DNA of 64,000 nt, from positions 22,076-86,075 of the forward strand of contig NMRA01000564.1 in NCBI GenBank assembly GCA_002633005.1, read 5' to 3'. Made by a program: the position numbers and the translations under genes. The notes under the pieces were generated by a model. It saw nothing but the letters and a program-made list of their open reading frames with translations. It searched no databases and was not told the DNA's origin. Below are positions 1 through 50,973 of this stretch, in pieces; positions within the stretch are counted from its first letter, which is position 1, and each line of letters opens with the position of its first letter. Origin of the DNA: Phoronis australis. Its lineage: Eukaryota > Animalia > Phoronida.

Positions 1-147
1 TGACTGTTGACATTGAGGTCACTGTATGCATATGTACTGTACTGCAAGGCTGCCGAGGTCACGTGTATTTGTTATATTTATATCTAAGAAGGAAGACAGT
101 CATTTCATGTTAATGTGTTCTCGGTACACGTATGCTATCATTGAAAT

Positions 148-548
148 CATAGATTATAAACAATAGATTCGCAACTCCGACATTTTCTTCCGTACTCTCC
201 AAAATTATTTGGTTCATTTCCGGTTAGTATATTGTAACTGCAAATTCTCGCATCTATTTTACTGTCCAGAACAAAGAAAACAAAATAGCAATTTCGGCAT
301 TGAAACGCTGCTCAAAATCTTAAAATAGTAGAAATATTGGTATCGCGAGTACTTTTAGCAATGCTACTATCACCCGACCACACAACAGCCGACCAAGATT
401 GGCAGACGACGTACTGGCCAAAAATAATACCAGATAATTTGGCCAGGTGTCGCTAGTGCATAATGACGTAACGTTGTATGGAAGAGCACGTACGGATTTC
501 GTCCATTGAATGTATACGGTGTTGGCGGTCTATGTACTATAGTCTATG
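148..548. mobile_element. MITE with imperfect TIRs CATAGA(C/T)TAT..CAACTCCG
   Basis: The ends are inverted complements, and the right ~170 bp recur at 26400-26569. Confidence 0.65.
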
Positions 549-697
549 GTGAAATTGAGCATTTAAAAAGCATGTTACGCTACGTTGCCTTCCGTGGCAA
601 TGACAACATGACAATACCAGAGTATATGCATGACATGCATACGCTCATGCATTTGAACCGCAAACAAATCATAACGAATTTGCTATTTTAACAGCCC

Positions 698-1223
698 TTA
701 AAGAGGCGTGGAACGCAAAATCTCCTCAAAGTAACTTGTAGACAATTCCTGGCGAATGTCCTCGCAATGTCTAGTACAGTGCAATTTACTTTCCCTTGTG
801 AGAAAATGTCCAAAAAATGACAAAATTTTTGAGATACGCGCGACGGAAAAACTTTCCAATCTCCCTCCCAATTATGATGCATGCGCGCATGTACTCACAG
901 TCAGTTGCTTGAAGTCACTTGAGGTCAAATTTCACATACTCCATATAAGGAAAATGTGCTACGTCTATCTGTTGCCATACCAAATAAGGAGACGTGGTTC
1001 ACCTTGTGGTAGAAAATTCGACGATGTTGGGAGCAGTTGACAGTTCGTTTTTTTGAAATTTGAAGCTAAAAGAAAATATTTTGATATCAAAAGAATTTAA
1101 AGATCTTTACAAACAAACCCTAAAAATACCTAGTGAGCAGGTTGAATTCTGTTTCAGTGGCAGAGAACCGTTTTCAATATTGCAATTATTTTAAGCTGTT
1201 TATCGCGTTCCAGGCCTCTTTAA
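698..1223 (+). mobile_element. Kolobok-like MITE family K1 (TTAA|AGAGGC.TGGAACGC..GCGTTCCAGGCCTCT|TTAA)
   Basis: TTAA flanks, AG..CT termini and TIRs; further copies near 9990-10341 and 10583-11130. Confidence 0.75.
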
Positions 1224-1260
1224 TGAGTATTTACGAGTAAGCACATCCTTTCCTTGATAG

Positions 1261-1590
1261 ATGGTCCCACAAAGGTGATCTTATTTGAGGAAGCCAGTCA
1301 AAACCAGGACGCATACAAGGACACGATATTGGTGGTTGATCAGCAATTTTACAAAATTAAATGCGCGACTGACGCCGTTCATCCTGCCGCTAGTGTGGAA
1401 TGGACGTTTCCCGGAGACAAGGAAGTCGGTCAGGTGTGGAACGTTACCAATGCAAGCGGTGTACTATTCCACAAGAGCATCTCGTTTACTGCTAATTTGT
1501 TCCACAACGGGAAGACACTAACATGCGAGGCAGCAAACGTCAGAGATGTCCTGCTAAGTGTGAAGAAGAAGATGGCCATTGATGTCACAT
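1261..1590 (+). CDS. Receptor exon, Ig-like domain A
   Basis: tag|AT GGT CCC ... GTC ACA T|gttagt; KIKC..WTF..LTCEAAN Ig Cys/Trp/Cys pattern. Confidence 0.85.
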
Positions 1591-4500
1591 GTTAGTAAAT
1601 GTAAATGTGCAACGAACGCCTATGTGTACAATGTTTTCCCCACACAACTTGGCGTGAATATTGACACGCTGAAAACAACTGACAGAATTCACTTATTCTG
1701 AATTACCAGAAGCTCTGGAACAGTAGGACCAATAGACGAGTAAATAAATATTGTTTCAACTTATTCACGAACGGATTCTCACAATAATTGAATGCACTCT
1801 ATACCGTCAAATTTATTGCCAGGTGCTGGAATTGGTAAAAACTCTCAAAGGTGTTTTTCCAACATATGTAGTTCATGAAACTGAAAGTGCTGATAAAGCG
1901 CTGAATGAGTTGATAAATGTACTGTAAAAACAATTCATGTCACAGTTTAAAAATGTGACGGTTGTGTACTAGAATGTTAATTAAGGTACTATTTGTTTTG
2001 TCTTCGTAACAAACTTTTTTGCTCTAACTATAGATGGGCCTAAGTTTCTGGAGTTCATCGATCCTCAGGATAAACTTAAAAGCCACGGTACGTCAACAAT
2101 CACAGTAGTTGATGGACAAGACATCAGCGTGGAGTGTCGCACGGATGGCGTGAACCCGGGCGCCTATGTGGAGTGGACAACTACAGATCACGTGACGCAG
2201 GATGATTCAACTAGAAATGGTTCCTTGACTGCTGCGATGGTCTATTCAAGGAAAGTCCACATTCTTGCCAGACCATCGTTAAACCTCCGAACTATTAACT
2301 ACTCGTCATGGAACATTAGACATCAGCAGTTTCGCCTAGAACGTTCCTTACAGATTCGTGTTCTATGTGAGTTATTGCCATATTACGACCGTGATTTCGC
2401 TTCGCAAAAGAAAGATAGCAAAGGAAACGTCTACGAGTTCTCATGTGGCATTTTATACAACAACAGACGGTCTGGTCAGGATTGTGGCCATTTATTTAAT
2501 ATGCATGTTTACATCTCCATCCGATGAGCCGTTTTCTATTAATTAGCAAAATATTAAAGCGCAAAATACTGCTGTATCGGCCAATCACGAGCATTCTCTA
2601 TAAGCGAGCAGAATCTGAAAAGTTGTGCTATTAAAATGTAGCTTTGTCGAGATAAAAATGCAAGTCTGGTGTCATATGTTGGCTGAGGGAAAGAGATCAT
2701 ATTATGGAGATAGATTAAAAGCATCACGAGCGTTGACATGTGAATTTGCGGAGACAGCTTACGTGTACCAGGCGTAACATTGCACTCTTTCACGATATCT
2801 AGCACTGTCGAATGTTGCATAACTTGGCTTCTCATTGGTTAAAGTAATGAGACCGATTTGATAACATTCAATCTTTCCCATTCGTTGAAATCTGCGGAGC
2901 CCCTTTCAATTTACAGTTACCGAGTATGGCGACCACCTTTGACTTGATTAGTTGCATTTTATTATAACGGTTAGTAATCGAAGTAAACCGGCAAAAACAA
3001 GGGATCCTCGATACAGTGGCTTAAGCCCAAACAAGTATAGTGCATAAAGGCGTGTGCAAGTGATGGCGATGTGATAGGTATACTTCTGATCAAGGCATGC
3101 GCATTGATGCCCACACACGGAATTCCGTGTGTCGTTCATCATGTTTCCACCGGTTCATTTTTCAGTGTAGGTGGCGCTGTGTCAGAGGGTAGCATAACTT
3201 CTGCCTCCTGGCCGGAAGTTATCTGAGCGCTGCATAACTAATATCTTCTTAGAAGAATTTTGGGATTTTATGGTTTTAAGTCTGAAACATTCCGGGAGGC
3301 TCCACAGAACTGATAGCAATTCGTGCTGTTGTCGTGTGGATGTTTACCACTGGAAATTAAAATCATAAAACAATAAATGCCGATTGATACATGTATGCTC
3401 GATCATGTCAATAATTAAAACAACCAGGATAGTAATGGTGTAACGCTGTGACTCAAAGTGCTTCTCTTGGTCTTCTAACAGACTACGCACTGTTGCAGAT
3501 GGTCCCGGCAATTTGACCATTTCACACACTGGCGGGATATTGGAAAACAGAACGTTTTACGTCACTGAAGGCGAAAGATACAGTCTCACCTGTTCCACAG
3601 ATGATGTGTATCCGTCCGGAAATATATCCTGGATATATTCCATTGGAAATACAAGGGATCTTGGCATCGGTCACCTTAGCAACGGAGCACTAAATTATTC
3701 GTTGACCATCGACTTTGTTGCCAACGCTAGTCAGAATGGTCTAGAACTCAGTTGTAAGGGAGTTAATAACGAAGCGAACTCGCTGAACAAAACGGAGACA
3801 ATATTGTTGAATGTAACGTGTAAGTGATTCTTAATAACTGTATGGAACCCGAAAAGGTCTAACTTCCTGTGCAGACATTTAATATGTAAGGCATTTTAAA
3901 GCGTTCCTGCAATCAATTTTGCACTTTTTGATGTTTTAAAGACGTGTAATCTAATATTCAGTAACACAACATCTAAACTCACAACCCATTTTTAGCAAAT
4001 AATTGAGGAATTTCAAACTTTAAAGAACAATTTAATTGATGATTTTTTTGGTTTCCCGCCCCGTGATGTCATCAGTGGAAGACGTTGATCTATTTACTGT
4101 TTATATTCAATGGTGGATAGTAGGGATTTTGTAAGTTACAAAGACTTTGAGAGCAAGCATGATGAATAATATGAAGGCACGCATGGAGATGGGGGCTAAG
4201 ACAACACTCAGACCATTATGTGAAACAGACTTTGCGTGTTTGAGGCCGTACGAATTCAACCCTTCCGCCTCGGCATCTTCAGCGCGAGTGAAACCGAATC
4301 GAAGCATACAAAGTCTGCGGACAATCGTGATTTCAGAGTGGTAAATAAAGCCTTTTTGTGAATAACAATTTAATTTTCTAACCAATACAGAGTTCAGAAA
4401 TATATGTCTAGAACTGTAAGTCTAGGAAAAGTTTCACTCTGACTGTCACATACAGTTGAGAATAGCGGTCACTGATTTTATTTCTTCGAATGCAGAGTGC

Positions 4501-7500
4501 ATTTCTCAGGAGTGATCATATCCAATTATAGTGACGGTAACTGGAGTTTATTTCTGGTAAATGATACTCGTTTTTCTCTCGTCTGTTCCAAATTAATGAT
4601 AGCTTTGTATCATTGTGATTTGTTGATTATTTCGGTCCAGTGTCCCGACTCCAGCTTCTGTACCGGCTCCATTCGTGACCTCAAACTATTTGCGTGGAAT
4701 GTATATCCCATTTTCTACTATTGTGCATTGACGTATATGTGGATAGCGTGCATTCTAACAAAATTTTAAAACAAGAATAGAGTAATGACATTATAATGCA
4801 GTCACATTCATTATCTCATTCACAATTTGATGCTGAGGCCCACACTCAATATATGCCTGGCTCTGCGATCTGAGGTTCTTTTGGAAACAAAAAAACTAAA
4901 TTGTCTGTCTGATTGCTATCACTGCATCCTTCATACATGCAACTTTTCACAAAACTCATTCGAACTCAGTTTTCGAGACCACTACGATTGGTGTAGAACA
5001 ACACAATGGCGGAGACCGGATCCACTGATGACGTCACACAATTTTTTATTTTTCTTGCGTTTATTTCTTGATTAAAAGTACGCAAATTGAAAAGGAAATG
5101 CATAAGACGTATTACCAGAATTGTTCGTAACCATTATGTGAAGGATTTTATACCGTTGCCGAGAAACAGCACAATAATAATTGGGTAATTGGAATACTAG
5201 GGCTCTACATAAAGAACGGCAGCTAATCGTTTGTAATGTTAAAAATATAACGGCTCTCGAAACACTGTATTTTCAGTCGGACCGAGTGCATTGGTTCTTT
5301 CTACATCTTCCTCGAGTTGCTTTGTCGACAGTGGCATTCTGTATATTGCTGAATACACTTCCTGTAGAATCGACTGCAGTACAACGCCATCTTGTCCGCT
5401 TGTGCTGGTCAGCTGGAACAGTTCTTCCGTTGGAGTCATCAAATCCCTAGATACCTCTCCTAAGCTGACTGAAAACTCTGGCCACGTTTATTCTCGTGTG
5501 ATGGACTACCACCCACGGTCACCGATTAAAGGCGTAACTGAGTTCGAATGCTCCGCCAACAACACAGTCAGTGGTCGTCAAGTTAGGTCAACAGTGTCGG
5601 TTCAGGTTGCGTGTAAGTTGTGTAATATTTGGAACTGGAACTTGATTGCATTCGCAAACAGTGTTCTGTCAAAGAAACAAATTTGTAATTTAGTGAACTA
5701 ACAATCATTGCCGTTCTCATGAATGTACAAGAGCTATATTTTTCTTCTTTGAACCAACAATCATAGTCGTTTTCATGAATTTACAAGAGCTACATTTTTT
5801 CTTTTTAACCTTTTCGAAAGTGAAAATGGTCAAATTGTATAAAAAGTCAGCATTCATGTTACTGCACGTACGTATGATTCAATTATAAATGCTGGTGCTT
5901 GTCTGTACAATGACGTAGTAATGTAAAGCAAAGATTTTCAACAATAATACGTGTGTTATTTTATTTTAGACTGCATTAGCATAAATCATCATTTATTTAA
6001 TATGTTTAATTTAGGAGATTGTTTAACTTCCATGAGACCAGAACCTTTATAGAGATGTTTCCTTTTACACCATGTCTGCAAAACGTCCGATATGGTGGTT
6101 TATTTTTTTATTTCAGACGGGCCACGCAGCTTACAACTAAGTTCCTTAGCGGGTAATCTTCAGCAATATAACGAGTCTCAATGGGGATTTGAGGTTTTTG
6201 ACAACCAGACCTATATCTTAAAATGCCTCACCGATGCCGTCAAACCATCGCTGCTCACTTTCGACGTCACTGCCGACTTCGGTGAAGAAAAACCGATCGT
6301 CTCACTTCGGTCAGCACAGAAAAATATCTTTACGAAGGAACTTGTTTTTACGGCCACAAAAGAACATAATTTCAAGCAAGTCATTTTCCACGCAGTCAAT
6401 GGTGTCGACAGAACCATGCATGCGACTGCAGCTGTTACCATAAAAGTTATATGTGAGTCTTTATGCAATTTAAATGTGTTGCTCTTGAAGTGGCTATACC
6501 TAAGCGTTCCGTCGCTAAACAGCATCTTGAGACAACGTATTTTAATTAAACCTGTCTCAAGTTACAGTTTTGCCAGGGCTTCGAAGGTACTCGCACTTCG
6601 TTACTGTTTGTTAACAGGGTCTAACCAATAAGTACTGTACAAGGTGGCTTGCCGCGTCATAACGATTTATGAATTGAGTGCAGTGTCAGGTCTTTGCAAA
6701 ACCCAGAAGTCACCATCCAATGAGTAAGTAACAAGCGGCCAGTTCATAGGGAAATTGTCAGTCTTTTGGATGAAACTCTCCGGGACCAAGACAAAAGACG
6801 TCACACTTGTGAGATCCATGCGACAGTCGTGAGCGCGTCGCATGGTTATCGCCTATTGTTTTCCTTTGAAAGCATGAAAATTTTGAGACGTCCAGTTGAG
6901 AAAACAGATCAAGTTTGAGTCTAATACTGGAATAAAAACTTACAAAAATTAGCGACGTTGCGTCCGCATCTCACGGACTTCAGTTTGGCTTGTGACGTTA
7001 TCGTTATTCTGGCCAATTGGTGGCGTTTTGGCTAAACGGCGCGGCATTGACGTCAGTACACCATCCCATACGTGTAACAAATTGAATCGTAAACCGCCTC
7101 TTTTATTTGAAGAGGGACTCTCAATGCCCTCATGGAGAGCTTCCTTTACACCCCTTTTGAACCAGTTATCCTCTGCCGCTGAAAGTGTGATGCACAAAAA
7201 CCCTATCGATTACAATAGTACACCCTCAAAACTAAAAATAGCCATTTCTTTTAGACGGCTGTGACTTTTTATATTCTACAGTTTCAGAGCCAGTACGTTC
7301 CCGCTGTTCATTTCCAATTCCATTACGCGGTGATCAATAGAACAACACTAAGACAAAAACATAACACAAGAGGTTACAGATTGTAGTAGGGACCCCTTCA
7401 GGCTTCTCAGACACTAGGGAGGTGTCCAGACTGGCGGGACTATTTCGAATCGTTGCTAGAGCTGACCATCTCAATGAATACAACAATCTAGCACGATTCT

Positions 7501-10500
7501 GCACCGCAAACATAAACACAGCGAGAGATCAAGTGAGACAAGTGTACACTATTCAATCTTAAAAATCTTCCTATTCCGCGGTATGTCAGGTCGCGATCAG
7601 CCAATCAGATTCATCATTAGCATGCAAGCTTTCAGATGTACAAAATTATACATGTGTGTACCGTAAGTACTTGGGAATGTATTGGAATGATCTACTTATC
7701 GTGATGCCTAATTTTTGTTTTCTTTTTGAGAAGTTTATCAAAGCACTTGAAAATCCCATGAACAAAAATAGAACTCAATACACTGACCTCTACTTTTCAT
7801 AGTATTGACATTATTGTGCTTATGAGCTGAGACCTTTGTTTTCGTCAAACTTCAGACGGTCCAAGCAGAATTGCTCTCGTTCTTTCCGGTCAGAATGGAC
7901 AATTATGGAAGTTGAGACTTGGCCAAGCTTACACTTTCGTTTGCGAAGTTGACGAGGTATACCCTAACGTCGCGTTTTCGTGGTTTCCACCCGGTGTTGC
8001 TCGACGTAGATCCAAAGGCAAAGGACAGTTTGGAGGCGTATTGTACAAAAGCTATATGGAGAAGAACTTGACCAGCACCGACCATCACATTGGATGTGAA
8101 GCAAAGAACACCTATCACGAATCGTTTGCCTTAGAAGTGAACACCACAGTTTTTCATAAAGGTGAGCTGTACTTACGTGTTGGGATGGAAAATAACCTCA
8201 ATGAATCCATTAGGGGTAAATTTGCTCAGCCTGGCATAAAAACACGGCATAGGACATATACACGTAGAAAAAAGGCAAATAGCTGACTTGCGAAATAGCC
8301 GCACGCTATTTTGAAATTCACTAACCCGCCAAAGGACGTTCAAATGCCATGTAATGCGGACGGGAAGTTTCAACCTACTGGTTTAAAAGCCGGCAAATTC
8401 CACTGTTATCGGGTGAAATGTACTAATGTCTTACAAGAAAAGGCAAACCTTTGGAATTGTTCCATATACATGTCCCTCTTAAAGGAAACAACGGCGACAA
8501 AGCAAGTAGCTGCGACTGATGAAACGGTACAATTTCGATCCCAGCCGGTGTCAATAAGATAAAATAAGTCAATGAACATACAGATGTAAGCTAATCAACC
8601 AATTGGAGGGACTGACAGTGGAATGTATTGCTGTTTTAACTTAATGAACCATTACATGTATGTTGTCGTTGAATCTGTGTCCACCAAATCTGAGCCGGGA
8701 TCAACCGGAAGTCACTATCGTGCTTCCATTACCGTAGAGAGCGCCAATATGGAGAGTCTTCTATTTTAAAAGGATCATGACTCAGAACATGATGGACAAA
8801 AACCTCATTAAAGTGATAACACTAAATACAAATTCCGAGTTGCATTATCTTTCTTTTAGCTTTATTTGCATTTGGCATAATTTCTTGTACACACACTGCG
8901 TGTCGTGTTGTTGCTCTTTCCAAAGAACGCATTCACTCAATAGTTACAGCATTACCATTATTGGAGACGGCAGTTCCATCGCCGTTTTTTCACTGATAGA
9001 AAATGTCAATATCAGGAACAGAAGTAGCTCCGTGACCACGCCTCTAAAATCCAGTTAAGATACTCGCTAACTCGTGATCCTGGACAAGCAGGCATCAGAC
9101 GCGGGTGCGCTGATTACCCAGACACTGATCCGTCGGCGTGTTCGGAACTGGCATGTTTTTATGAAGCATTTTTGGCGCGTGTCTGCTGTTTTGGAACTCG
9201 GGACGTGAATTGTATTCGGTGGCTTGAACATCTACTATTCCCTTCAGTTGATGGTAGCTGGGGACTCTGGAGTGACTGGGACAATTGTACTGCATCGTGC
9301 GGGAACGGTGCCATCTACCGGCGGCGAACATGCGACAGTCCTGCACCACGTCATGGTGGGAGGATATGCGCTGGTGACAGCACACAGTCTGCCAGCTGTT
9401 CAGTGCCCACTTCATGCCTTCGTAAGACCTTATGTTTTGGTGGTGAAATGACGCTAAATATGATATTGCTTTAATAAAAACGCGTTTCAAATAGCTGATT
9501 TCTAACAATTGAAATTATTCTACAGTACGGGTGATCTCTGGATGAAATTACTATGTAAGCTAGTTTACCACAAAGTGATTTTAAATAGGCACGGAACGCA
9601 AAAGCTCGCCAAAAATGTGTTTTAAATTATAACTGACGAAAGTACCATTTCGCAAAGTCTGGTACAGAGTAATTCCCTTTCCCCTGTGAGGGAATTTCCA
9701 GAATAAAATTACAAAATTCACGATTTTTGAAAATGCTCGAAGGATAAACTCTTTACTCACCACAGAGTTTCTTATCTCCCTCTGCGTTCATAGTAATTCG
9801 AAAAACACGTGACTGATAAGACGGATATTAACAGCAGATTATCGTGCGTGATTGCACTCCGACTCTGAGGTTGACAGCACAGTATTGGGCAAGCCAATGA
9901 AGCAAACAAATTTCCAAAAAGAATTCCAAGTGTATATTAGAATATACTTGAATTCTGCAATACTTGTATAAATAATTTTAAGCAGTAAACACATCAGTTG
10001 CTTCTTAATCGGACTGGCTGCTGCTTGAATTGTTTTGTTAACATCAAAGGTCAAAAATTACACTTCCCATATAAGGGAAATGTGTTTTTGTATGTCCTGC
10101 CATTCTCAGCAAGGAGACATACTTTGCCGTTGGGAGAAAAATTGACGAAGTGGAAAGCAGTTGGCAGATCTATTTTAAATTTGAAACTAAACGAAAAATG
10201 CTTTGATATTAACAAAGATTCAAAATTTTACGAAAAAAGGTAAAAAAATGCCTGCTGAGCAGGTTAAATTCTGTTTCAGTGGCTGAGAACCACTTTGAAT
10301 ATAGCAATTTAGTCTGCTTATCGCGTTCCAGGCCTCTTTAAGAGTGTCTATACTTATCAATCAGGCAAAGATTCTTTAAAATTACTACTTCAGGTCTGAC
10401 TGACGGAAGCACTGCTCAAAACTGTCTTCGTATTAATTTTTTTAACAAATTAACTTAATATTCTAAAAGCAACAAAACACTGTTAATTAAGGATTACAGC

Positions 10501-13500
10501 CATGTTTGGTGACATGGTCTTAGGGTTTCTTCAACAATATATCAAACATGTACGTCAAAGAAGGTCTAACTGCAGCCATATTTTAAAGAGCCCTGGCACG
10601 CAATAAACATACTAAAATGCTATATTGAAAGTGGTTCTCTGCTACTGAAACAAAATTCAACCTGCTCACCTGCTATTTTTAACGTGTAGGTTTGTTCGGA
10701 AAGATTTTTAATTTTTGTGGACTTCAAAGAATTTTCTTTTATTTTCAAGTTTCAAAAAGCGATATGTCAACTGCTCGCCACTTCTTCGTTTTTTCTCCCA
10801 CAAGGCAAAGCACTTCTCCTTATTTAGTATAGCAAGACATAGATGAAGCAAATTTCCCTTATATGGGAAGTGTGGCTTTTGATTTCAAGCGACTTCAAGG
10901 AATCGACTGAACGCATGTGCGCATTTATCACAAGTCGTTGGGAGATTACAAACTCTCGTGGTAACCACAGTATTTCATTCGCGCGTATTTCAAAATTGTG
11001 AATTTTGTCATTTTTTGGACATTTCCTCCCAGGAGAAGGTGAATTACTCTCTACTAGACGTTGCAAGATCGTACTTTCTTAAGGAATTGTTTTGTGTTTT
11101 TAAAATGTCTATCGCGTGTTCAAATTAAATACGTCTGTCTGTCTCATTGGGTATACGAAGGTTATGCTTTCTCCCGTGAACAATCATGTATTTCAGAGAC
11201 ATCTCCGTTGCTCGTGGGAAGCTTGACAGCCGTCGTAATAATAGTTGGGGTTGCGATTTTGTTGATTATCGCGTGGAGACGCAAACGTAAGATACACCAC
11301 GAGAAAGCCTTGTGCGAGGCTCCAGAGATATATGCTGGCGACAGGGGCGCAGAACATACGGAACTAGAGAAAAAAGTATTGAGTTTATCCCCATCGTTGC
11401 TGCAATCCTCCAATGAAGACCTTTGTATGACTGATAGCTTGGTAAACGTTGTAGATAGGCAGTCAGACTTCGTCAAACTAGGAGGAACAGTTTTAAATGA
11501 GACAGATCTGAAGAAACTGGGGGTTGATTTGTCGGTAAATGCACTTTCAGACTTGTCTCGGAAATTGGCAGTTGAAGTTAGTTCAAGGTCTACTAAAGAG
11601 TTGGAAACAGCATCTGAAGATAAATGTTTGAAGCCTTGCAATCGAGGAAGTAAATCCAGCTTGCGACGGAAAAGCAATGACGAAGATCGCAAACCTTATG
11701 AAGGTATTTTGACGACGGCACGGGATATTTTTTCTAAACTGAAAAGTAAAATAACTCCAATCAATGCAGACAAGCCAAAGCAGTTGACAGTGGACAACGG
11801 GAAAGGGCCTAAAGTTGATTTAACGGATGTCAAGCAAATCAACGCTGCCATATTTGGAGTACTAGAACTGTTTAAGTTTATTGGTATGGACATTTCAAAT
11901 CTAAAAGCTGCAACACTTTTTGAACAAGTTGAGCTGACGGAGCCTGTGGTGACACGGTGGGCACAAACGGTTGGAATTAATCTGGAAGAGATTTCACGCG
12001 TTAACTCAGCCACCGAAACAGAAATGGAATGGATTCAAGATGCAGGTATAGAAATGCTAAAACGCGGAGGAATTGACATATCTACACAATTTGGAAGAAA
12101 ATTGGGCAAAATGCCAGCAAATGGCACGACTTTTCTCAAAAACATCGGCGTAGACCTGAGCAGGCATGCCCAAGTTAACTTGAAGGAGAACCATGGTCTC
12201 AAGATAACGCGAGAAATTGGAATAGAATTGTTGAAAATGAGAGGCTATGACGTTCGTAGAATCGCTGAATATAAATTGACTGTTGACGATTCGGCCTCAG
12301 CACAAAAGAATCTTCAAAATATGGGCTTGGATTTGAGGAAATATAGCAAACCCAGTATCAAGCCTAATGTTGACCTCCGAAAAGAGAGTATGCAGATAGC
12401 TAATGAGTTGCTGGTACAACTTCACATAGACATCTTTTCTAAACGTAAACTAAAAGTAAAAATAAATACATTTGATGAGCGCGAGCCCATTAACCAGGGA
12501 GATAAATTAATTATCAATTATCAGTCAAAAAAGGAAAGGATTTTACAGCAGTTTGGAATAGAACTCATTCAAAAAGCAGGTATTGACCTACAAAAAGCAA
12601 TTGGAAAAAGCCTTAATGAAAGCCCAACTGTCGACATCCTGACACCAGAGGGCGTTAAGGCATTGGAAGAGGTAGGCGTACAGTATGCAAAAGTGGCGAC
12701 TTGTGAACTTATATCTCAGTTCGAAATTGACCTTCTCAGGTATGCCGCTATTCAATTGTTACTGCATGCTAACGTGGATTTGGGGTCTGCAACCAAATTT
12801 TTGTTAACTGGTGGATTTCCGACCGCGGTTTTAACGCCTCTTCTCAAGTTTATGGGCATCAGCTTAAAACGCAATGCGAAGGCTTTGAAAAGGGACAAAC
12901 TCGCGAGCTCTATTACTCAGCAAGCTGGTATTGAATTACTGAAGAGGACCGGTATAGACATCACACAGTTTATTCAAACTGTATCAGAAAAGCGTCCTGA
13001 GGATACTAATAACCCAGAAGCGCGACGAGTATTGAAAGGATGTGGCTTAGATCGAATTCAACTCGATATCGAAGTGTCGAAGTCCAAACATGAAGCTATT
13101 GGATTTCTTAGGTCAACGAGCTTGCGGCTCTTACGGAAGACTGGGGTCGATTTGGATCCAAGCTCAAACAGGCTCGTAAAAATGGTAGATATTCATACAC
13201 CGTTAGGTAACGCACTTGTTAAACATTTTGGTGTAAATTTTGATGTACTTGATAAAACAGAGCGCGTTGATAAACGAATGTGGGATAATATTCGATTAGC
13301 TGCATTTGAACTCCTCAAAACTACCGGAGTAGACCTTACCAAATTGGCTGACTTGGATATTAACCTAATACACAAGATCAATATACGGCAACACGAAACA
13401 CGGCTTCAGGAAGTTGGAATTGACCTCAACAAAATGGATTTCACACGGACTACACACTTGGAAATAGACGCCATCCGACAGGCTGGGGTTGAGTTAATGA

Positions 13501-16500
13501 AACACGCAAGAATCGATATATCCACGGCTAATCCTAACGATTTGATCGACAATTCTTTCCACGTAATATCTCCAGAAGTGAATGAAACGCTGAAACTTAT
13601 GGGCATAGACATTGACAAGGCATCAACGGTTTGCTCCAAAAGTCAAAATGAGAGAATGTTGATTTTGAAAGCAGGTATAGAAATTCTGCGGTTGACAGGA
13701 ATTGACTTGCAAATGTATGTTAACGCCATAAAGTCTGAGTGTAAAAGTAATCAGAAGAGTCTGCCTTGTGAGATAGAGTTACTAAAGACTTATGGCATAG
13801 ACCTTGAACGCCACGAGAGATTAGCGATGGTAGAACCATCATTGCTCGACTTAACTATGCAAGCGGCCATAAGGCTCCTTCAATCGACTGATATCGATTT
13901 GAGAAAGGGGGAGTCATGGAAATCTCCAAACGTTGAGCCATCGTCACTTTTGTCCGCTTTCTCCATAAACGCTCTCTGCGACATTGGTATTGATCTTGAA
14001 AGGCATGCCGAAATTGAGAAAAAAACTCCACAAATATTTCATTTGACAGCGCGTGCCGGTCTAGAACTCATTAGACGAACTGGTGTGGATACTAAAAAAG
14101 TGGAGCATTTGTTGGGTGCCGAAGAAAAGAAGATCAATGAGATACTCACAGAACAGCGCTTAGAAATCCTTAGAAATGTTGGAATTGACATGCAACGGCA
14201 CAACGAGGCTGACCTATCACTTCAAGATTTACTTGATATCACATTTCACGCCGGCATTGAATTGCTGAAGCGAGCTCAGATTAACCCCCAATTTATTCAC
14301 GCAATCGTTGACGAAGCAAGCAAACAATCATCGCAAACTGAAATGCCGGTGGAAGATCTTCTGAATCACCTTTTGTCGGTGGGAATAAACTTGCCGAAGC
14401 ACTTAAGCACTGCTAACCATACGAGTATGGAATTGACAAAACTGGCAGGGGTTGAGCTGCTCAAGCACTGTGGAATCGACATAACAAAGCTGAAAGGATT
14501 CAGCTATAAACAAACTACTTTTTTTGACAAACCCTCATTATTGAAAAACAAGCAGCTTCCGGAACTAGGCATAAACCTACTAGCACAAACGAGAGAACAC
14601 ATGCGAGATCATTTGAGGAAACAGTTGACTAGACAAGCCGGGTTGGAATTATTAAAGCGCTCGGGCGTCAACTTAATTGCAGAAAATGACGAACTGGCAC
14701 AGCCTAACATTTTTGACTTGTCTTGTCAATTATCTACTAACATTTTAGCCAGCATGGGAATAGACCTTGTCGCACATTCCATAATAGACTTATCTAAAAA
14801 GAATAACCTGCTGCTTACTCAAGACTTGGGATTTGAGCTCCTAAGACGAACTGGAATTGATTTGCGGTACGTTAACTACAAAGATTTAAGTTCTCTGAGA
14901 GGATCGGTGGATATGAAAAAACATAGAGCAGACATGCTTGAAGTAGGAGTAGATATATCGATGAATCAGATGGCGTGCCTGCCGAAAGCAATTGTCTCCA
15001 ACGTGACGAGGCAAATTGCATTAGAACTTCTCAAACGTAAACAACTTCTGGACAATGAGTACACCACCACTGTCATTAAGAACGATTTAAAGGCTCTTGG
15101 AATCAACATATCAAAGCTTAATAGCATGGACTTATCAAAGAAAAGGTTTATCGACCTGGCGCAACTGGCGGCAGTACATCTACTGAAAGAAACGGGGGTG
15201 GATTTGACTAGACTTGATATTAACGTTCTAAAAAGTCGCCGAAGAATGGATATTGAGAGCGAAAGCGCAATATCAAAGCTACTCAAACTTGGCGTTAATC
15301 TTCAAAGACACAGGGATTTGGATTTGGCGACCCACTTTGCGCTAGACGTCACGCGACAGGCTGCGTTAGAAGTTCTTAAGATAGGTGGAGTAGACCTTAA
15401 ACCTGACGATGGTTTGACACTCAGTATGATAACAGGGCTTGATTTGAAAACGGGCTTTGGAAAGCAGGTCATGAATGAGTTAGGTATTAACTTAGATCAG
15501 CTTAGAAATTCAGATCTGCCAACTCGGCTAATCGGTAATCTTTGCTTTGAAGCTGGTATCCAGCTTATGATGAGATCAGGCATAAATATGAACCCGCAGT
15601 TATTGTGTGATATTAAGTGCCTAAGCGGTAGATATTCTGCACAGGATATGTTCAAGCACCACGAAAACAGCCTTAAGCGTGTTGGTCTTGATTTAAGCAA
15701 ACATCCAGGGCGCCGTTTCTTAGAAAAATGTGGAACTGATTCGGCGTGTAAGACAGGAATCGCGGTACTAAAACGTGCTAAGATTGACTTAGATCCAGGC
15801 ATTTCATTGTTGCGCCTTGAGACACCAGCGAATGTTACAGATCGATTAAAATTGATGGGTTTCGATCGATCATTTGACCAAACAACAGACACATTCACCT
15901 TGAAAGATAAAAGTGCAATCCAAGTTGTTGTCATGCGCTTGATGAAGATCACTGGTATAGATGTCAAACAACTTAAAACGCTTGATCTCAGTCAAATTAA
16001 AGTTGAAATGAGTCACTTGAAAAGACAAGAAAATATTCGTATCGGAATAGATTTGTTAAAGTATCGCAAAGCTTTCCCTCTAAATATTGTGGGGAAACAA
16101 ATAGCCTATATGGCTGGAACTGAGTTGCTTAAACGGACTGTGGTTAACTATACCACAGAAGATTACGATCGCTCAAACAGGTTGATGGGTGCTGACGTTT
16201 CAAGAAGAGAAGTTCATAGTATGTTACTCAACATGGGAATCGACTTAACACTACACGCGGGCATTGAGATGAACGAAGAAAATTCACGACTCACAGCGGA
16301 AGCCGCGTTTAAAGTGTTGCTTAGTTTGGGTCTTGATTTGAAGAAATTTACTGAAACGCTTTCGGATGATGCACTCCAAAATAATATACCTAGGAAACTG
16401 CAGAAAAAGGTGAGCAAAAGGATAGGACTTGATTTAAAAACGTGCTTATCTTATAGGCTTTCCAATGCAACAGATGTAGTATTGCTAAGGGACGCTACCG

Positions 16501-19346
16501 CAAATCTATTGAAGTTTGCAGTCAGTATCAATGAGACGAGTGCACCTAAAGCGGAAGTAGCACAAGAACAAATCGTAAGAGAAACCAAGAAGACCGAGGA
16601 CACTGTCGCTGCAGAAAAGAAGCTTGGTGAGCTGTTGAAGCATCTGGAAGAATCTGGAAATCGGTTGAAACTTTTGGGAATTGACCTATCGATAAAAAAT
16701 TCATTGTCAGCCCCGAAACAAAACTGCCTGAGAGTAATTGCTCTCAGTGAATTGTTGCTCCACATGGGAGTTAGCGTCAGAAAAATTAAGGACGCCAAAA
16801 TAGATGATGTCGAGGCGCATGAGCGAAAATTGTTGAAAAACATAGGTATAGACATGGACATTTTTGATCAAGGGTTTCCCATTATTAAAGGTGCAAAGCA
16901 TGTACTCATACAAGCCGGAATAGACTTACTTAAACGCTCTGGCATCGATCTCACCACGGAACAGTACCAACAAGTAAACAAGCTGACAGGCATCGATATG
17001 TTAACCAAATCGTATTTGGCAATCTTAAATAAACTGGGAATTGATATGGCTAGACATGCGAGAATCAGTCAGAACGGAGGCACGAGTGTTTTGACCAAGC
17101 ACGCTGCTATTGAAATTTTACGGATACTTGGTCTTGACCTGAAAAAAATAACCGGGCTGTTCGCAGCTGGCCCTTGCACAGAGAGCCCATCAAAAGAAAT
17201 GAAACAAGAAATCAAGAAGATTGGAGTAGATTTGGATATATGTTTGTCTCGTCCACTTTCTACTGGGTTGGATGTCTTGCTGCTAATGGATGTTGTGCTG
17301 ACCTTGATCGCCAGCATTGACGTGAGACAAGGCGTAGCTTCACCAATGTCTTTAGATAAAACACAACCACCCGGTTCAAGTATTCAAGCCCAAGCGAAAG
17401 CAAGTGCGGCAAGCGAGTCAAGTGAATCGAGCACAGAAGAAAGTAGCATGGATTCAAGTGAAACTGGGTTAACTGAAAAAACTCAAATCATTCACGACGA
17501 AACAATAGTAGATACGGCAGAGGAGTCAAGCACGGAAGAGGAGTCAAGCACGGAAGAGGAGTCAAGCACGGAAGAGGAGTCGAGTACGGAAGAGGAGTCG
17601 AGCACAGAAGATGGTGGAAGTGATGAAGGTATTAATATGACTTTTCAAGAAACTAAAAACATAACAAAAATTCAAATAAACGCATCATCGGACGAGGAAG
17701 TTGAAGCCAGTGAAGAAGAGACGTCGACCGAAGAAAGTGAAGATGATGGCAGCCCAACACTGACTGCTCGGGAAACTAAAGAGACAAGAACAAGATCAGA
17801 TGAGTCAGACGAAATGGGGTCGACAAAAGAAGATGATAGAAGTGATGAGGCAAGTGAATCTAATGAAGAAGAGTCGACTACAGAAGATGGCGACAACGAT
17901 GATTCTGAAGACGAAGGCGATCAGAAACCATTTAGACCAATACACTTTTTAAAAAAACTGTCGAGTGATCAATCCATACTGGAATATTTGAAAAGAACTG
18001 CGTTTGTTGATTTTTCAAAATGCCGCCCAGTGTGTGAGGAGGATGTCAAACTGATTAAGTCTGCTGCCACGTGGTTACTTCAGAGAAGTGGTGGCAAACA
18101 ATCGTCTTTGAAAGATCTGATTCCTTCGAAGCCAGTCGCGATTACCGACAGACACCACATCGAGAGGTTAAAGCAAATGGGAATAGATATTAATGAGATG
18201 AGGCTGCTAAAGTTAGAGGAAGCAGACGAAATACTTTTTGTGAAGCTGGCTGGGCTTGAGCTGTTGAATCGTGTTGGTATCAATACGAAATGCCATATTG
18301 AAGAGCTTGAAAGCGACAAAGATGCTATTCGTGCTTGCTCGCGTGTTTTGAAGAACACAACGATAAGCAAGTCGGACTTGCCAAAAAAGAAGTCTAAGTC
18401 CAGTGGCACACAAATACAAAATATTAGCGCAGGAGAATTAATGCGCAACTTTGGTGCAGAACTCCTAAAAAGAGCGGGGATTAATCCAACGCTTTTGCTC
18501 AACAATATGAAACCCAAAGTAGATTTGAGATCATCGAAGTGTATTACCAAGCTTAGAATGTTTGGCATAGACCTTGAAAAGCACGCAAGGAGTAACGTAC
18601 ACTCACAAGATGGGCATAATTTGTCGATTCAGGCAGGGCTAGAGTTACTAAAAAGAGTGGGCGTGAGCATTAAGAAGTTAAAAGGATTTGTTAAGCCGAA
18701 GCAAGTGGACGATCCAGTTCTACTTGCGGCGGGATTAGATTTAAAGACCCACTCAAAAATGGACCTAGGTATACCAGAAAACTTTGCAGTCACAAAAGAA
18801 GCCGGAGCTGAGCTTCTACGTCGAGCTTCTGTGAACGTGAAAAAACAACTTGCTTTCAAGCGTGCCAAACAAAAGATCCGGAACATAGACTTTGAGTCTG
18901 GTGTCGTTACTGAACAAATGAAAAAAATTGGCATCGACCTCGAAAAGTTTTCGAAGGGAAATCAGCAGACAACAGCAGGACGTGAAGTAAATCTCTCGGT
19001 AGGTCTTGAGCTAATTAAGAGGTCAGGCGTGACAAAAGATGTGTTGACTGAAATTCGTGCACTGGATTCATCTGACAAGTGCAATAAATCGGCAACGAAA
19101 GTGGGTGCATTACATCAAACAGAGATCCCCATATTGCAATCGCGTTTAACTTCTAAGGGCGCCAATCCAAAGCTGCCAAAATATGAAATTACTAATCGCA
19201 AAAACAATAGAAACAGTCGTTCTTTGAACACGTCAAGTTCACAGGCAAATAAATTGTATGAGATTTCGACTGAAACTGCTGTGAAGAAGAAAACAAACAC
19301 CAAAAAGACGCCCCCTGTTATTGCATTCCTACGAGAACTTAATTGA
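1261..19346 (+). CDS. 5'-partial giant type I membrane receptor: >=6 Ig-like domains + TSP1 + TM + ~2690-aa helical-repeat cytoplasmic tail (spliced gene)
   Basis: Exons 1261-1590, 2034-2366, 3499-3819, 5277-5612, 6117-6452, 7856-8161, 9248-9421 and 11197-19346 all have AG/GT borders and phase-1 junctions. They join in frame (>=3428 aa), and the Ig junctions recreate Y/F-G-P linkers. No signal peptide exon is in the window. Confidence 0.85.
2034..2366 (+). CDS. Receptor exon, Ig-like domain B (second Cys replaced by Tyr)
   Basis: tag|AT GGG CCT ... CTA T|gtgagt; SVECRTDGVNP..VEW..INYSSWN. Confidence 0.8.
3499..3819 (+). CDS. Receptor exon, Ig-like domain C
   Basis: cag|AT GGT CCC ... ACG T|gtaagt; SLTCSTDDVYP..ISW..NGLELSCKGVN. 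Confidence 0.88.
3896..5105. mobile_element. Decayed TTAA-AG TIR element (Kolobok-like) with an internal KolX-like PYEFNP motif
   Basis: Inverted subterminal motifs gtgatgtcatcagtgga (~4062) and tccactgatgacgtcac (~5021); degenerate terminal inverted match; LRPYEFNP at ~4240. Confidence 0.42.
5277..5612 (+). CDS. Receptor exon, Ig-like domain D
   Basis: cag|TC GGA CCG ... GCG T|gtaagt; IDCSTTPSCP..VSW..FECSANN. Confidence 0.83.
6117..6452 (+). CDS. Receptor exon, Ig-like domain E (lacks the second Cys and the core Trp)
   Basis: cag|AC GGG CCA ... ATA T|gtgagt; ILKCLTDAVKP..FTATKEHNFKQVIFHAVN, which aligns by eye with domain A. Confidence 0.8.
6940..7190 (-). mobile_element. Penelope-like retroelement fragment (C-terminal part of the GIY-YIG endonuclease)
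   Basis: EDNWFKRGVKEAL..ESPSSNKRGGLRFNL resembles the typical PLE motif ExxWFERGVKEAI..PSLNRGGGLR. Confidence 0.72.
7856..8161 (+). CDS. Receptor exon, Ig-like domain F
   Basis: cag|AC GGT CCA ... AAA G|gtgagc; FVCEVDEVYP..FSW..IGCEAKN. Confidence 0.83.
9248..9421 (+). CDS. Receptor exon, thrombospondin type-1 repeat (TSP1)
   Basis: cag|TT GAT ... CTT C|gtaaga; [43 protein letters not shown] is a canonical TSP1 with WxxWxxW. Confidence 0.92.
9990..10341 (+). mobile_element. Kolobok-like MITE K1, 5'-truncated copy
   Basis: Matches ~900-1223, including the terminus gcgttccaggcctctttaa. Confidence 0.72.
10583..11130 (-). mobile_element. Kolobok-like MITE K1, inverted copy
   Basis: Begins ttaaagagccctggcacgc and is the reverse complement of 698-1223 along its length. 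Confidence 0.72.
11197..19346 (+). CDS. Receptor terminal exon (8150 nt): TM helix + giant repeat-containing cytoplasmic domain
   Basis: tttcag|AG ACA phase-1 acceptor; TM LLVGSLTAVVIIVGVAILLIIAW (11208-11276) followed by RRKRK; open frame to TGA at 19344-19346. Confidence 0.88.
17520..17609 (+). repeat. Coding 18-bp minisatellite (GAGGAGTCAAGCACGGAA)x5 encoding EESSTE
   Basis: Five near-identical in-frame units read directly from the sequence. Confidence 0.9.
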
Positions 19347-19577
19347 AGACGACATCTCGTCTTCGTGCAAATGTGTGAAAGTTGAACCATGTACTGTCTA
19401 TTTAATGCAGACAACTGCGGTTTGGTGTCATGTTTGCCTTTTGGATCGACGATTTCCCAGACGTATAATGAAAAGCTGTTCTCATCATTTCTGCTCTAGT
19501 TACGCCATGTGACGAGAAGAATTGATGTTATGTTTGCGTTTTTCAAACTCAGAAATATATAAACTGATTAGTTATCG

Positions 19578-19583
19578 TTTATT
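19578..19583 (-). terminator. Candidate poly(A) signal AATAAA for ABCB1
   Basis: TTTATT on the plus strand ~250 nt beyond the ABCB1 stop codon. Confidence 0.45.
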
Positions 19584-19833
19584 ATTAAGCAAAAATCCTG
19601 CATAAATCTTGGTTATTGATATGTCTAATATTAATGTCTAATTTGACTTTAACCAAGACACACAACATATGAACTGTGTCAAGTTGATTACTAAGTAAAC
19701 ATAACAAAACATGCAGCAGACAAAGGAAAATGAGCCGACGCTGTAGGTAGATGATGGCAAAACGATAACGAGCATCGATATAGCTATGAGCAATATCCAG
19801 TTCTTGTAGATGTGTACAGTAGTGATGTCTCGA

Positions 19834-46995
<27,162 letters not shown>

Positions 46996-49900: not shown

Positions 49901-50973
49901 ACTCAGCGGTGAAACGTTCGGTTGCCGATGCGGTGGAGTATTTCGATTCCTTGTTACTCATGCCAATTTCTGTAAAATTACTCATCTCGCTGAGAATATC
50001 CCTTTAATTTATAAAACTGTTATAACATGGCAGAGAGAGAATATGAGTGTTCACGTGCCAGAAGCGTTCGTTTGAAAACAGTAATATTCAAACGCCATGT
50101 GAATAAAAAAGCATGTCGTGAACACGTCCACTAAAACAAGAAACTGTAGGAACACCGCATTTATCCACCTTCACTCTTATCAGGCTTCTATTGTGAGTCA
50201 GCATGCGTGAATAATAGGCTGATAAGCCACCTCTGGAACTACTTTTGGCTGAATGGATGACCAGGCCATAAAATGATAATTAGCCAAGAGCAGTTACTAT
50301 AATGCAACAAAGAATAATGTCTTGCATCACCTAGCCTTGGTGGAAAGCTTTATACTGTATTGGCTCAAACAAACGCTTAGAAAAATTCATTTCACGGTGA
50401 GGGGACGCTTATTGTAGTGAGCCTACGGCAGTTGAAACCCGGTTTCCCAAACGGGTAAAATCGGAAGCTAGGATTCATCAAATTTACGNATCCGTCAGGC
50501 ACATTTGCTGCCTCGTTTTCGTGACACTGGGGCTTCACATGTTTTGTGTTGTTGTCTGGTTCTTTACAATTTTTTCGCGGTTGCATTACTCTATTCGTCT
50601 TTCCAATGCCATTGAAGTATTCCTGCTGCCCTGTGGGCTGCATCTCCGACGTGAAAAAAGTTTGATAAATTGGACAAATACCCGTGGATGCGTGACTCTG
50701 AAATTCTTCGCCTTCCCGGCATCAATGAGAGACACGAAAATGTACCTGACTTCCAAAACTAGATTACGCTTTCTTATCTCCCGGACAAAGGAGAGTTCTA
50801 TCGCCGTGTAATCCGGGACTGCCCTATTGACCTGTCGTCAGGATTTTGACCGGCTGGCGGCTTGACTGACCAAATAAAACGCAGCATTCTTGACACACCT
50901 TCGTCTGCGTTTCCAAGCCGCCATTTTACCGGACAAACAACACGGCTGTAGTTCAAGAAATTGTGCGATAAGA

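Follow-up and report, generated by a model that had tools for sequence, protein, structure and literature searches.

What protein is encoded by an animal exon of more than 8 kilobases (kb) in which two short motifs alternate over almost the whole length, and does its repeat belong to any described family? These questions are raised by a 64,000-nucleotide (nt) stretch of Phoronis australis DNA (contig NMRA01000564.1, positions 22,076 to 86,075), hereafter the window, in whose coordinates all positions are given. An earlier note, made from the letters and their open reading frames (ORFs), had proposed an apparently novel bipartite helical repeat between 11845 and 19040. Here, we report that the exon is genuine and expressed, and that it encodes the tail of a spliced membrane receptor with immunoglobulin (Ig)-like and thrombospondin type 1 (TSP1) exons. 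We find that the tail contains 29 units and 6 fragments of a repeat that, to the extent that Pfam, the PDB and the searchable protein collections allow a judgement, is best read as a new family of helical repeats. Whether the units stack into long rods that serve as a submembrane scaffold is, in our estimation, evenly poised.

The ORF (11061–19346, forward strand) comprises 2,761 codons and is the sole ORF of at least 180 amino acids (aa) in the window; at a threshold of 150 aa only one further ORF, of 179 aa, lies outside it. The claim that more than 8 kb is free of stop codons is borne out, the probability of no stop across 2,761 codons being 3e-83 from base composition. Read in any of the other five frames, this DNA has 56–242 stops and no copy of either motif. 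To follow the transcript, we used three RNA-sequencing runs with the same species label (X5, X6 and X7), aligned to positions 1–20000 of the window. In X5 and X6 the read depth is unbroken, at 4–18 in every bin between 11340 and 19343, and the strand bias agrees with forward-strand RNA; X7 has no reads over the giant exon or the gene. The joint that leads into the exon (9421>11197) is covered by 10 reads in X5 and 6 in X6, and no joint falls inside the exon among the RNA read joints listed. In an index of sequencing runs, four DNA runs, all from one study and two of them possibly the source of the assembly, contain 96–99% of the words of the exon; the index lists no RNA run with it, the expression being seen in the raw reads above. 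The giant last coding exon is thus a genuine, expressed feature.

Both proposed motifs are present in the product far above chance. Motif A occurs 24 times with at least 9 of 14 positions matched (20 copies before and 4 after an acidic spacer) and never in 200 shuffles, and motif B occurs 28 times with at least 6 of 8 positions matched (25 before and 3 after the spacer; shuffle mean 0.075). The G-h-[DNSQ]-h anchors (h, hydrophobic) number 61, against a shuffle mean of 4.3; 31 of the 60 successive anchor spacings measure 29–33 residues (17 exactly 32) and 6 measure 62–67. BLOSUM autocorrelation over residues 301–2100 peaks at lags of 8, 16, 24, 32 and 64 residues (z = 10.0, 7.6, 6.7, 9.6 and 6.5, respectively), whereas the highest z in 100 shuffles is 4.9, so the periodicity that the earlier note had set as a test is statistically supported. 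A hidden Markov model (HMM) trained on 21 hand-anchored units returned 35 domain rows on the protein, 29 of them at or above 7.9 bits, compared with a maximum of 2.7 bits in 20 shuffled proteins. Eight of the 29 scoring units are absent from the training alignment, which holds the other 21, and score 7.9–28.8 bits. On the basis of these scores, the supported count is 29 units (24 before and 5 after the spacer) and 6 fragments, a little lower than the earlier figure of about 36 A motifs. The repeat first put at about 35 copies therefore stands with a slight overcount, whereas the division into about 30 and about 6 A motifs around the spacer does not hold. The HMM matches extend over residues 146–2657 (nt 11496–19031), in agreement with the coordinates first proposed.

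The column table of the 29 units places motif A at unit positions 10–26, with the consensus L-T-[RQK]-Q-A-G-I-E-L-L-K-R-T-G-I-D-L, and motif B at positions 51–61, with the consensus L-K-x-[IMV]-G-I-D-L-x-K-H. Conservation is highest in motif A at the alanine (22 of 28 units), Leu18 and Leu19 (24 of 29 each) and Gly23 (23 of 29), and in motif B at Gly55 (28 of 29) and Asp57 (22 of 29), with His61 kept in 12 of 28; most conserved positions are hydrophobic, Gly or Asp. By hhalign, the A half and the B half are homologous to each other (probability 93%, E 2.7e-7). It follows that the repeat is at base 32 residues long and that an A and a B half together form a 64-residue super-repeat; this keeps the length of the bipartite unit proposed earlier (about 60–65 aa) and corrects its make-up. 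We also considered an ancestral unit of 16 residues and rejected it: the lag-8 and lag-16 signals arise inside motif A, from leucines at positions 10, 18 and 26 and from G-I-E-L at position 15 followed eight residues on by G-I-D-L at position 23, and an extra G-h-D-h at +16 is seen in just two or three units.

Pairwise identity between units averages 23.7% (10–43%) and is the same for neighbours as for units twelve apart, which suggests an array that is old or fast-evolving and free of recent unit duplication, except for one duplicated block described below. Motif columns are 37.6% identical and the remaining columns 10%, which is chance level, yet the length of the unit is kept; such even spacing in otherwise unconstrained sequence fits a geometric constraint such as stacking. 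The copies are highly diverged in DNA, as had been stated: Tandem Repeats Finder detected no DNA array in the exon save an 18-nt unit repeated 5.4 times in the acidic spacer, a DNA-level repeat search of the exon returned motif-sized matches only (20–44 nt, 60–80% identity), and the anchor glycines use all four codons (GGA 22, GGC 12, GGT 10 and GGG 5).

The units are distributed over three arrays (Table 1), the first two divided by a short linker and the last two by an acidic spacer of about 225 residues. The duplicated block, of about 240 residues, relates the end of array 1 (residues 1595–1833, nt 15843–16559) to array 2 (residues 1868–2108, nt 16662–17384) at 30–40% identity (BLASTP 40% over 146 aa, E 4e-31; segment BLAST 30–36% over 182–193 aa), so that its copies are much closer to each other than ordinary units are (about 24%). 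Both copies finish in the hydrophobic, cap-like segment C-L-S-x-x-L-S-x-x-x-D-V-x-L-L-x-D, beyond which the array ends. In charge, the arrays are mildly basic (isoelectric point (pI) 9.0–9.8) and residues 2661–2761 strongly so (pI 10.2), whereas the spacer (residues 2101–2325) has a pI of 4.05 and a net charge of −50. The 18-nt unit of the spacer (17514–17611, 93% matches) encodes (TEEESS)n; no other DNA repeat of the exon is young, and this one could differ in length between individuals.

The earlier note had seen the repeat tail alone; the RNA reads connect it to a receptor. Seven GT..AG joints on the forward strand (1590>2034, 2366>3499, 3819>5277, 5612>6117, 6452>7856, 8159>9246 and 9421>11197) link six Ig-like exons and one TSP1 exon to the giant exon, and a single open frame persists through all of them when joined. 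The first of these exons is open in this frame and aligns with the five other Ig exons. The six (304–336 nt) are paralogous, at about 20–28% identity with an invariant first Cys, and although each falls just under the Pfam Ig cut-offs, the profile of all six matches solved Ig domains in the PDB, best those of SYG-2 (E 2.6e-13) and also those of IrreC, MDGA1 and Robo, which places them in the Ig superfamily (IgSF). The TSP1 exon scores above the cut-off of its own family, PF00090. The Ig-exon profile detected no additional Ig exon within 1–11200; the 5′ end of the gene therefore lies outside the window. Splicing of the giant exon to these exons shows that the protein is a type I IgSF/TSP1 receptor, the 5′ part of which lies beyond the window. 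The roughly 2,690 residues that follow the membrane helix, with a mass of about 299 kDa, are predicted to be cytoplasmic from the positive-inside rule and from the position of the Ig and TSP1 exons on the other side of the helix.

The RNA alignments also contain features of other kinds. In X6, a joint that goes back 5,506 nt (8331>2826, 3 reads) connects Ig-exon regions, and an opposite-strand joint lies at 6943/7019; both have minimal support, and a back-splice into circular RNA, template switching from one paralogous Ig exon to another or an inverted repeat could account for them. Within introns, at about 150–189, 894–929, 3159–3191 and 6867–6898, all three runs, including X7, have short read segments on both strands with many loose ends into differing sequences; these resemble interspersed-repeat copies whose transcripts arise at many loci. 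At 11634–11635, in the codon for Pro192, two adjacent RNA differences from the assembly (C>A in 6 of 7 reads and C>T in 6 of 8) would singly give Thr or Leu, and on the same reads ATT (Ile).

We searched for the family of the repeat at the level of domains, structures and proteins. The whole product matches four Pfam families (2025 copy) at E ≤ 1, none of them a repeat family, and no family recurs among the 21 single units at E ≤ 10. At these thresholds neither the protein nor the units match the ankyrin models (Ank, Ank_2 to Ank_5) or mTERF, PPR, TPR, HEAT or Armadillo. Clp_N (PF02861) scores 12.9 and 13.7 bits in the scans of the protein, against a cut-off of 20.7 and over about 20 profile positions, and matches 2 of the 21 units (best E 0.023). 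One stretch, residues 2414–2481, scores above the cut-off of GIDA_C_1st (PF21680; 30.2 bits, E 7.7e-7, cut-off 24.7; 29.3 bits on the C-terminal piece); this family matches none of the 21 units at E ≤ 10, and the protein has no GIDA domain at E ≤ 1. We read the match as two cap motifs at the right spacing. Whether the query was the protein or the unit profile, sequence searches of the PDB (2026 copy) gave nothing below E 0.017. The rows are matches of 10–25 residues to turns of the helix-Gly-h-Asp type, found in TetR, a Dps-like protein and EPSP synthase. The proposal that the repeat falls into no described family (mTERF, PPR, HEAT, ankyrin and TPR) is thus upheld by Pfam and by PDB sequence search, as well as by the fold searches described below.

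Among proteins at large, the 64-column unit profile was run on 1,835,955,588 representative proteins of any length, a search in which any orthologue built of many units should reach hundreds of bits. It returned 7 matches at E ≤ 0.001 (1 at ≤1e-10 and 0 at ≤1e-30), which by Pfam are unrelated repeat proteins (SET-domain, ResIII/DEAD helicases with C-terminal repeats, bacterial Ig-like and ankyrin) that have in common only L-x-x-h-G-V/I-D-L. A word-indexed protein search with residues 300–2100, among candidates of 1,518–4,832 aa, found nothing at E ≤ 0.001. Queries of 700 and 127 aa gave no usable match in the ESM Atlas and were recognized poorly by the language model (929 and 1117), a single 697-aa query against metagenome contigs gave 297 pattern matches with 0 confirmed, and Rfam gave 0 matches across the whole window. 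A literature search by architecture words and motif strings did not find the repeat in print. For the neighbouring gene, the library of representative proteins returned ABCB1-like proteins of oyster, seadragon and spider at 37–48% identity. Annotated animal proteins are thus present in it, but the lineage of this animal is poorly represented, and the absence of an orthologue is weak evidence.

To obtain a structural view of the repeat, we modelled two and four units with AlphaFold2, using as alignments non-overlapping paralogous segments of this one protein (12 rows for two units, 7 for four). The two-unit model (residues 1116–1242) is predicted with a mean predicted local distance difference test (pLDDT) score of 82.9 (75–83 across the five models) and a predicted template modelling (pTM) score of 0.79, and forms one compact body with helices at model positions 2–21, 43–53, 63–85 and 108–116. 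In each unit, a helix of about 20 residues runs through motif A and ends before Gly23; the variable segment after it is irregular or short-helical, and a motif B helix of about 10 residues then ends before Gly55. Single bridge residues lie just past each cap, at positions 30, 56, 91 and 119. The helical units with a helix-Gly-turn cap that were first guessed from the letters are thus what AlphaFold2 predicts. Foldseek searches of the PDB gave a best E of 4.1 for the two-unit and 3.1 for the four-unit model, and no ankyrin or MnmG structure is among the matches listed by Foldseek and VIA-align with the predicted model as query. The predicted two-unit body is confident, yet the fold searches match it to no solved structure.

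On this basis, we favour, at about even chances, a reading in which the tail is made of 29 helical modules stacked into long rods that act as a submembrane scaffold. In such a structure, the Gly would terminate each helix, the hydrophobic residue after it would pack inward and the Asp would cap the following helix, roles that would make the motifs structural rather than catalytic. The units would stack into rods, the first two arrays each closed by the cap-like segment. The basic arrays and the acidic spacer would form a long multivalent platform that joins extracellular Ig/TSP1 adhesion to the cell cortex, with the spacer, which can probably be phosphorylated, placed between basic arrays as their hinge or as an element of regulation. 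A broader claim is tentative, and we place it somewhat below even chances: that the 32-residue half with its G-h-D-h cap, in two alternating flavours that make the 64-residue super-repeat, is an undescribed α-helical fold with no PDB neighbour, that an IgSF/TSP1 adhesion receptor carries a 300-kDa cytoplasmic rod built from it, and that this represents a new, lineage-restricted coupling of recognition to the cortex.

Several points weigh against the stacked, scaffolding tail. Both models rest on paralogous segments of a single protein, 7 and 12 in number. The four-unit model (residues 1051–1305) is all-helical but has a pLDDT of only 66.5 and a pTM of 0.45, and its pLDDT drops below 50 in variable segments that follow motif A (95–113 and 222–235); stacking past two units is therefore not supported by the models, which, on solenoid versus beads, give one compact body at two units and low confidence at four. 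The proposed scaffold function is drawn from the architecture, and the predicted topology is likewise an inference, the 5′ end of the gene, and with it the signal-peptide region, lying beyond the window. The collections searched, with their thin coverage of eukaryotes, yielded no orthologue, so that conservation is seen within one protein only, and among the differences listed between RNA and assembly within the ORF, 7 of 8 are non-synonymous. The long-standing selection that the earlier note had deduced is accordingly seen only as far as the open frame and the conserved motif columns of this one protein show it. Six of the listed differences fall in the arrays or in the region before them, and none abolishes a motif Gly or Asp.

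The modules could instead be beads on a string: small helical domains, one per unit or pair of units, that are independent of each other and joined by flexible variable segments, so that the tail would be an extensible tether or spring rather than a rigid rod. The collapse of confidence in the variable segments of the four-unit model and its low pTM would be expected of such a chain, and the columns outside the motifs are only about 10% identical. However, two units are predicted to form one body (pTM 0.79), the linker length is kept more tightly (31 of 60 spacings at 29–33 residues) than free linkers need, and arrays 1 and 2 have a cap-like terminal segment in common. We prefer stacked rods because unit length is strictly kept despite the free sequence of the variable segments and because the arrays have cap-like ends; we regard beads as unlikely, but as a reading to be taken seriously.

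We think it very unlikely that the tail is mostly disordered and that its A and B motifs are some 58 amphipathic docking helices that fold on a common partner. Conservation is indeed limited to two motifs of 11–17 residues, no known fold is matched and recognition by the language model is low, all of which would suit an array of short motifs. The conserved hydrophobic, Gly and Asp positions are, however, typical of a packed core and of helix caps, the two-unit fold is predicted to be compact and confident without any partner, and period and length are tightly kept.

Little credence goes to a highly diverged ankyrin array, whose 33-residue repeats would survive in degenerate form as the 32-residue halves, with only the second helix and the G-x-D-h loop kept. 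In favour of this reading, the period is 32 against 33 residues, the helix ends in L-L-K-x-x-G followed by h-D-h as in ankyrin repeats (PF00023 and PF12796), and one of the seven profile-search matches, P0008, is an ankyrin protein (Ank_2 at 5.5e-57), with whose five repeats the A half aligns by hhalign at a probability of 85.5% over 19 columns, corresponding to the second helix and loop. P0008 was chosen from 1.84 billion proteins for matching, however, and this score is therefore biased upward; the B half reaches only 39%. The hhalign match spans ankyrin positions 14–32 only, and the consensus of the 29 units lacks a first-helix signature and keeps neither T, P nor H where T-P-L-H would stand. 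One helix of about 20 residues is predicted here where ankyrin has two short antiparallel helices, and two alternating sub-types make up a 64-residue super-repeat. Together with the lack of a Pfam ankyrin match to protein or units and of an ankyrin structure among the listed fold matches, these differences argue against an ankyrin origin. The idea that the feature is no protein at all but a misassembly, a non-coding repeat or a frame open by chance, to which the lack of a homologue in any collection searched might point, is effectively refuted by the stop-free frame, by transcription and in-frame splicing to the Ig/TSP1 exons in two RNA runs, by the presence of the exon in the DNA runs and by the restriction of the motifs to this frame.

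The comparison with other known systems further defines what is new. The cap motif L-x-x-h-G-h-D-h, which closes one helix with a C-cap and opens the next with an N-cap, gives weak, sub-threshold matches to Clp_N and B5, to the three PDB proteins named above and to the bacterial repeat proteins P0003, P0004, P0006 and P0007; all of these matches span 10–25 residues only. The likeness of the cap to mTERF, noted at the outset, has no mTERF match in Pfam beside it. Such a motif recurs widely, in Clp_N, B5, TetR, mTERF-like and helicase-associated repeats, and is no mark of any one family. With the C-terminal helical domain of MnmG/GidA, the tail has in common the one stretch above the PF21680 cut-off; unlike a true MnmG relative, it matches at one place in 2,761 residues and in no single unit, and the enzyme context is absent.

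The receptor part resembles UNC5-type and SYG-2/nephrin-type receptors, which have tandem Ig domains, then TSP1 adjoining the membrane and one membrane helix; the Ig domains of SYG-2 are the closest PDB match to the Ig exons here. Unlike the tail of UNC5, the 2,761-residue product contains no ZU5, UPA or death domain (Pfam, E ≤ 1), and in contrast to both receptor types the tail, at about 300 kDa, is many times longer and built of the new repeat. Nebulin, the Xin-repeat proteins, AHNAK and ALMS1 are giant repeat scaffolds encoded by single large exons. The tail described here is alike in design only, with dozens of diverged short repeats in one huge exon and a long, multivalent cytoskeletal or cortical scaffold in prospect; no sequence relation is known, none of these proteins is known as a membrane-anchored Ig/TSP1 receptor, and they differ from the tail in repeat length and motif.

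Table 1. Features of the receptor gene within the window. Residues are those of the 2,761-codon ORF.
Feature	Position	Strand	Details and evidence
Ig-like exon 1 (of those in the window)	1260..1590	+	donor 1590>2034; profile match 1263-1589; 5′ edge without read joint
Ig-like exon 2	2034..2366	+	joints; Pfam Ig_3 E 0.0009, 20.1 bits, below cut-off of 30
Ig-like exon 3	3499..3819	+	joints; Pfam C2-set_2 20.7 bits, below cut-off of 21
Ig-like exon 4	5277..5612	+	joints; aligns to other Ig exons
Ig-like exon 5	6117..6452	+	joints; aligns to other Ig exons
Ig-like exon 6	7856..8159	+	joints; aligns to other Ig exons
Thrombospondin type 1 repeat exon	9246..9421	+	joints; Pfam TSP_1 (PF00090) E 5.5e-12, 46.1 bits, cut-off 21.6
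Giant last coding exon, 8,150 nt	11197..19346	+	acceptor tttcag, exon starting A, at 11196/11197; TGA stop 19344-19346
Transmembrane helix LLVGSLTAVVIIVGVAILLIIAW, 23 residues, then RRKRK (residues 50-72)	11208..11276	+	read from translation
Juxtamembrane region (residues 73-314)	11277..12002	+	HMM fragments at 146-160 and 268-313; no Pfam match
Array 1 (residues 315-1833): 21 units of at least 7.9 bits and degenerate copies; cap-like end CLSYRLSNATDVVLLRD	12003..16559	+	unit HMM
Array 2 (residues 1860-2108): 3 units and the same cap-like end	16638..17384	+	unit HMM, BLAST
Acidic Ser/Thr/Glu/Asp spacer (about residues 2109-2325)	17385..18035	+	composition
Array 3 (residues 2329-2657): 5 units and one fragment	18045..19031	+	unit HMM
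Basic Lys/Asn/Ser/Thr C-terminal tail (residues 2658-2761)	19032..19343	+	pI; no Pfam family above cut-off

Downstream, exons of an ABCB1/P-glycoprotein-like ATP-binding cassette transporter lie on the reverse strand (19834–45175), convergent on the giant exon from about 19.8 kb. Walker and signature motifs are found in the ORF pieces 19834–20130, 24057–24383 and 33293–33610, and a transmembrane exon is 46–48% identical to oyster and seadragon ABCB1-like proteins; opposite-strand RNA reads start directly past the stop of the giant exon (bin 19344–20000). Farther on, a long imperfect trinucleotide microsatellite (46353–46894) reads as poly-His, poly-Asp, poly-Met or poly-Ile according to frame and strand, and an ambiguous assembly base (N) at about 50488–50490 appears as X in ORF translations of both strands.

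Few building plans are reused as often, in biology or in protein design, as the tandem helical repeats (ankyrin, HEAT, TPR, PPR and TALE among them), and a new geometry and binding mode has come with every family added. The locus described here places 58 half-units in a single transcribed exon, with a two-unit model that is confident and unlike any solved structure, and to our knowledge such an array has no precedent in the tail of an Ig/TSP1 membrane receptor. Should relatives exist in well-annotated eukaryote proteomes, the array would be an ordinary lineage-specific expansion of an unnamed family. If, instead, the fold and the stacking are confirmed, the repeat would be a new class, and the question would become what a 300-kDa rod under an adhesion receptor holds.

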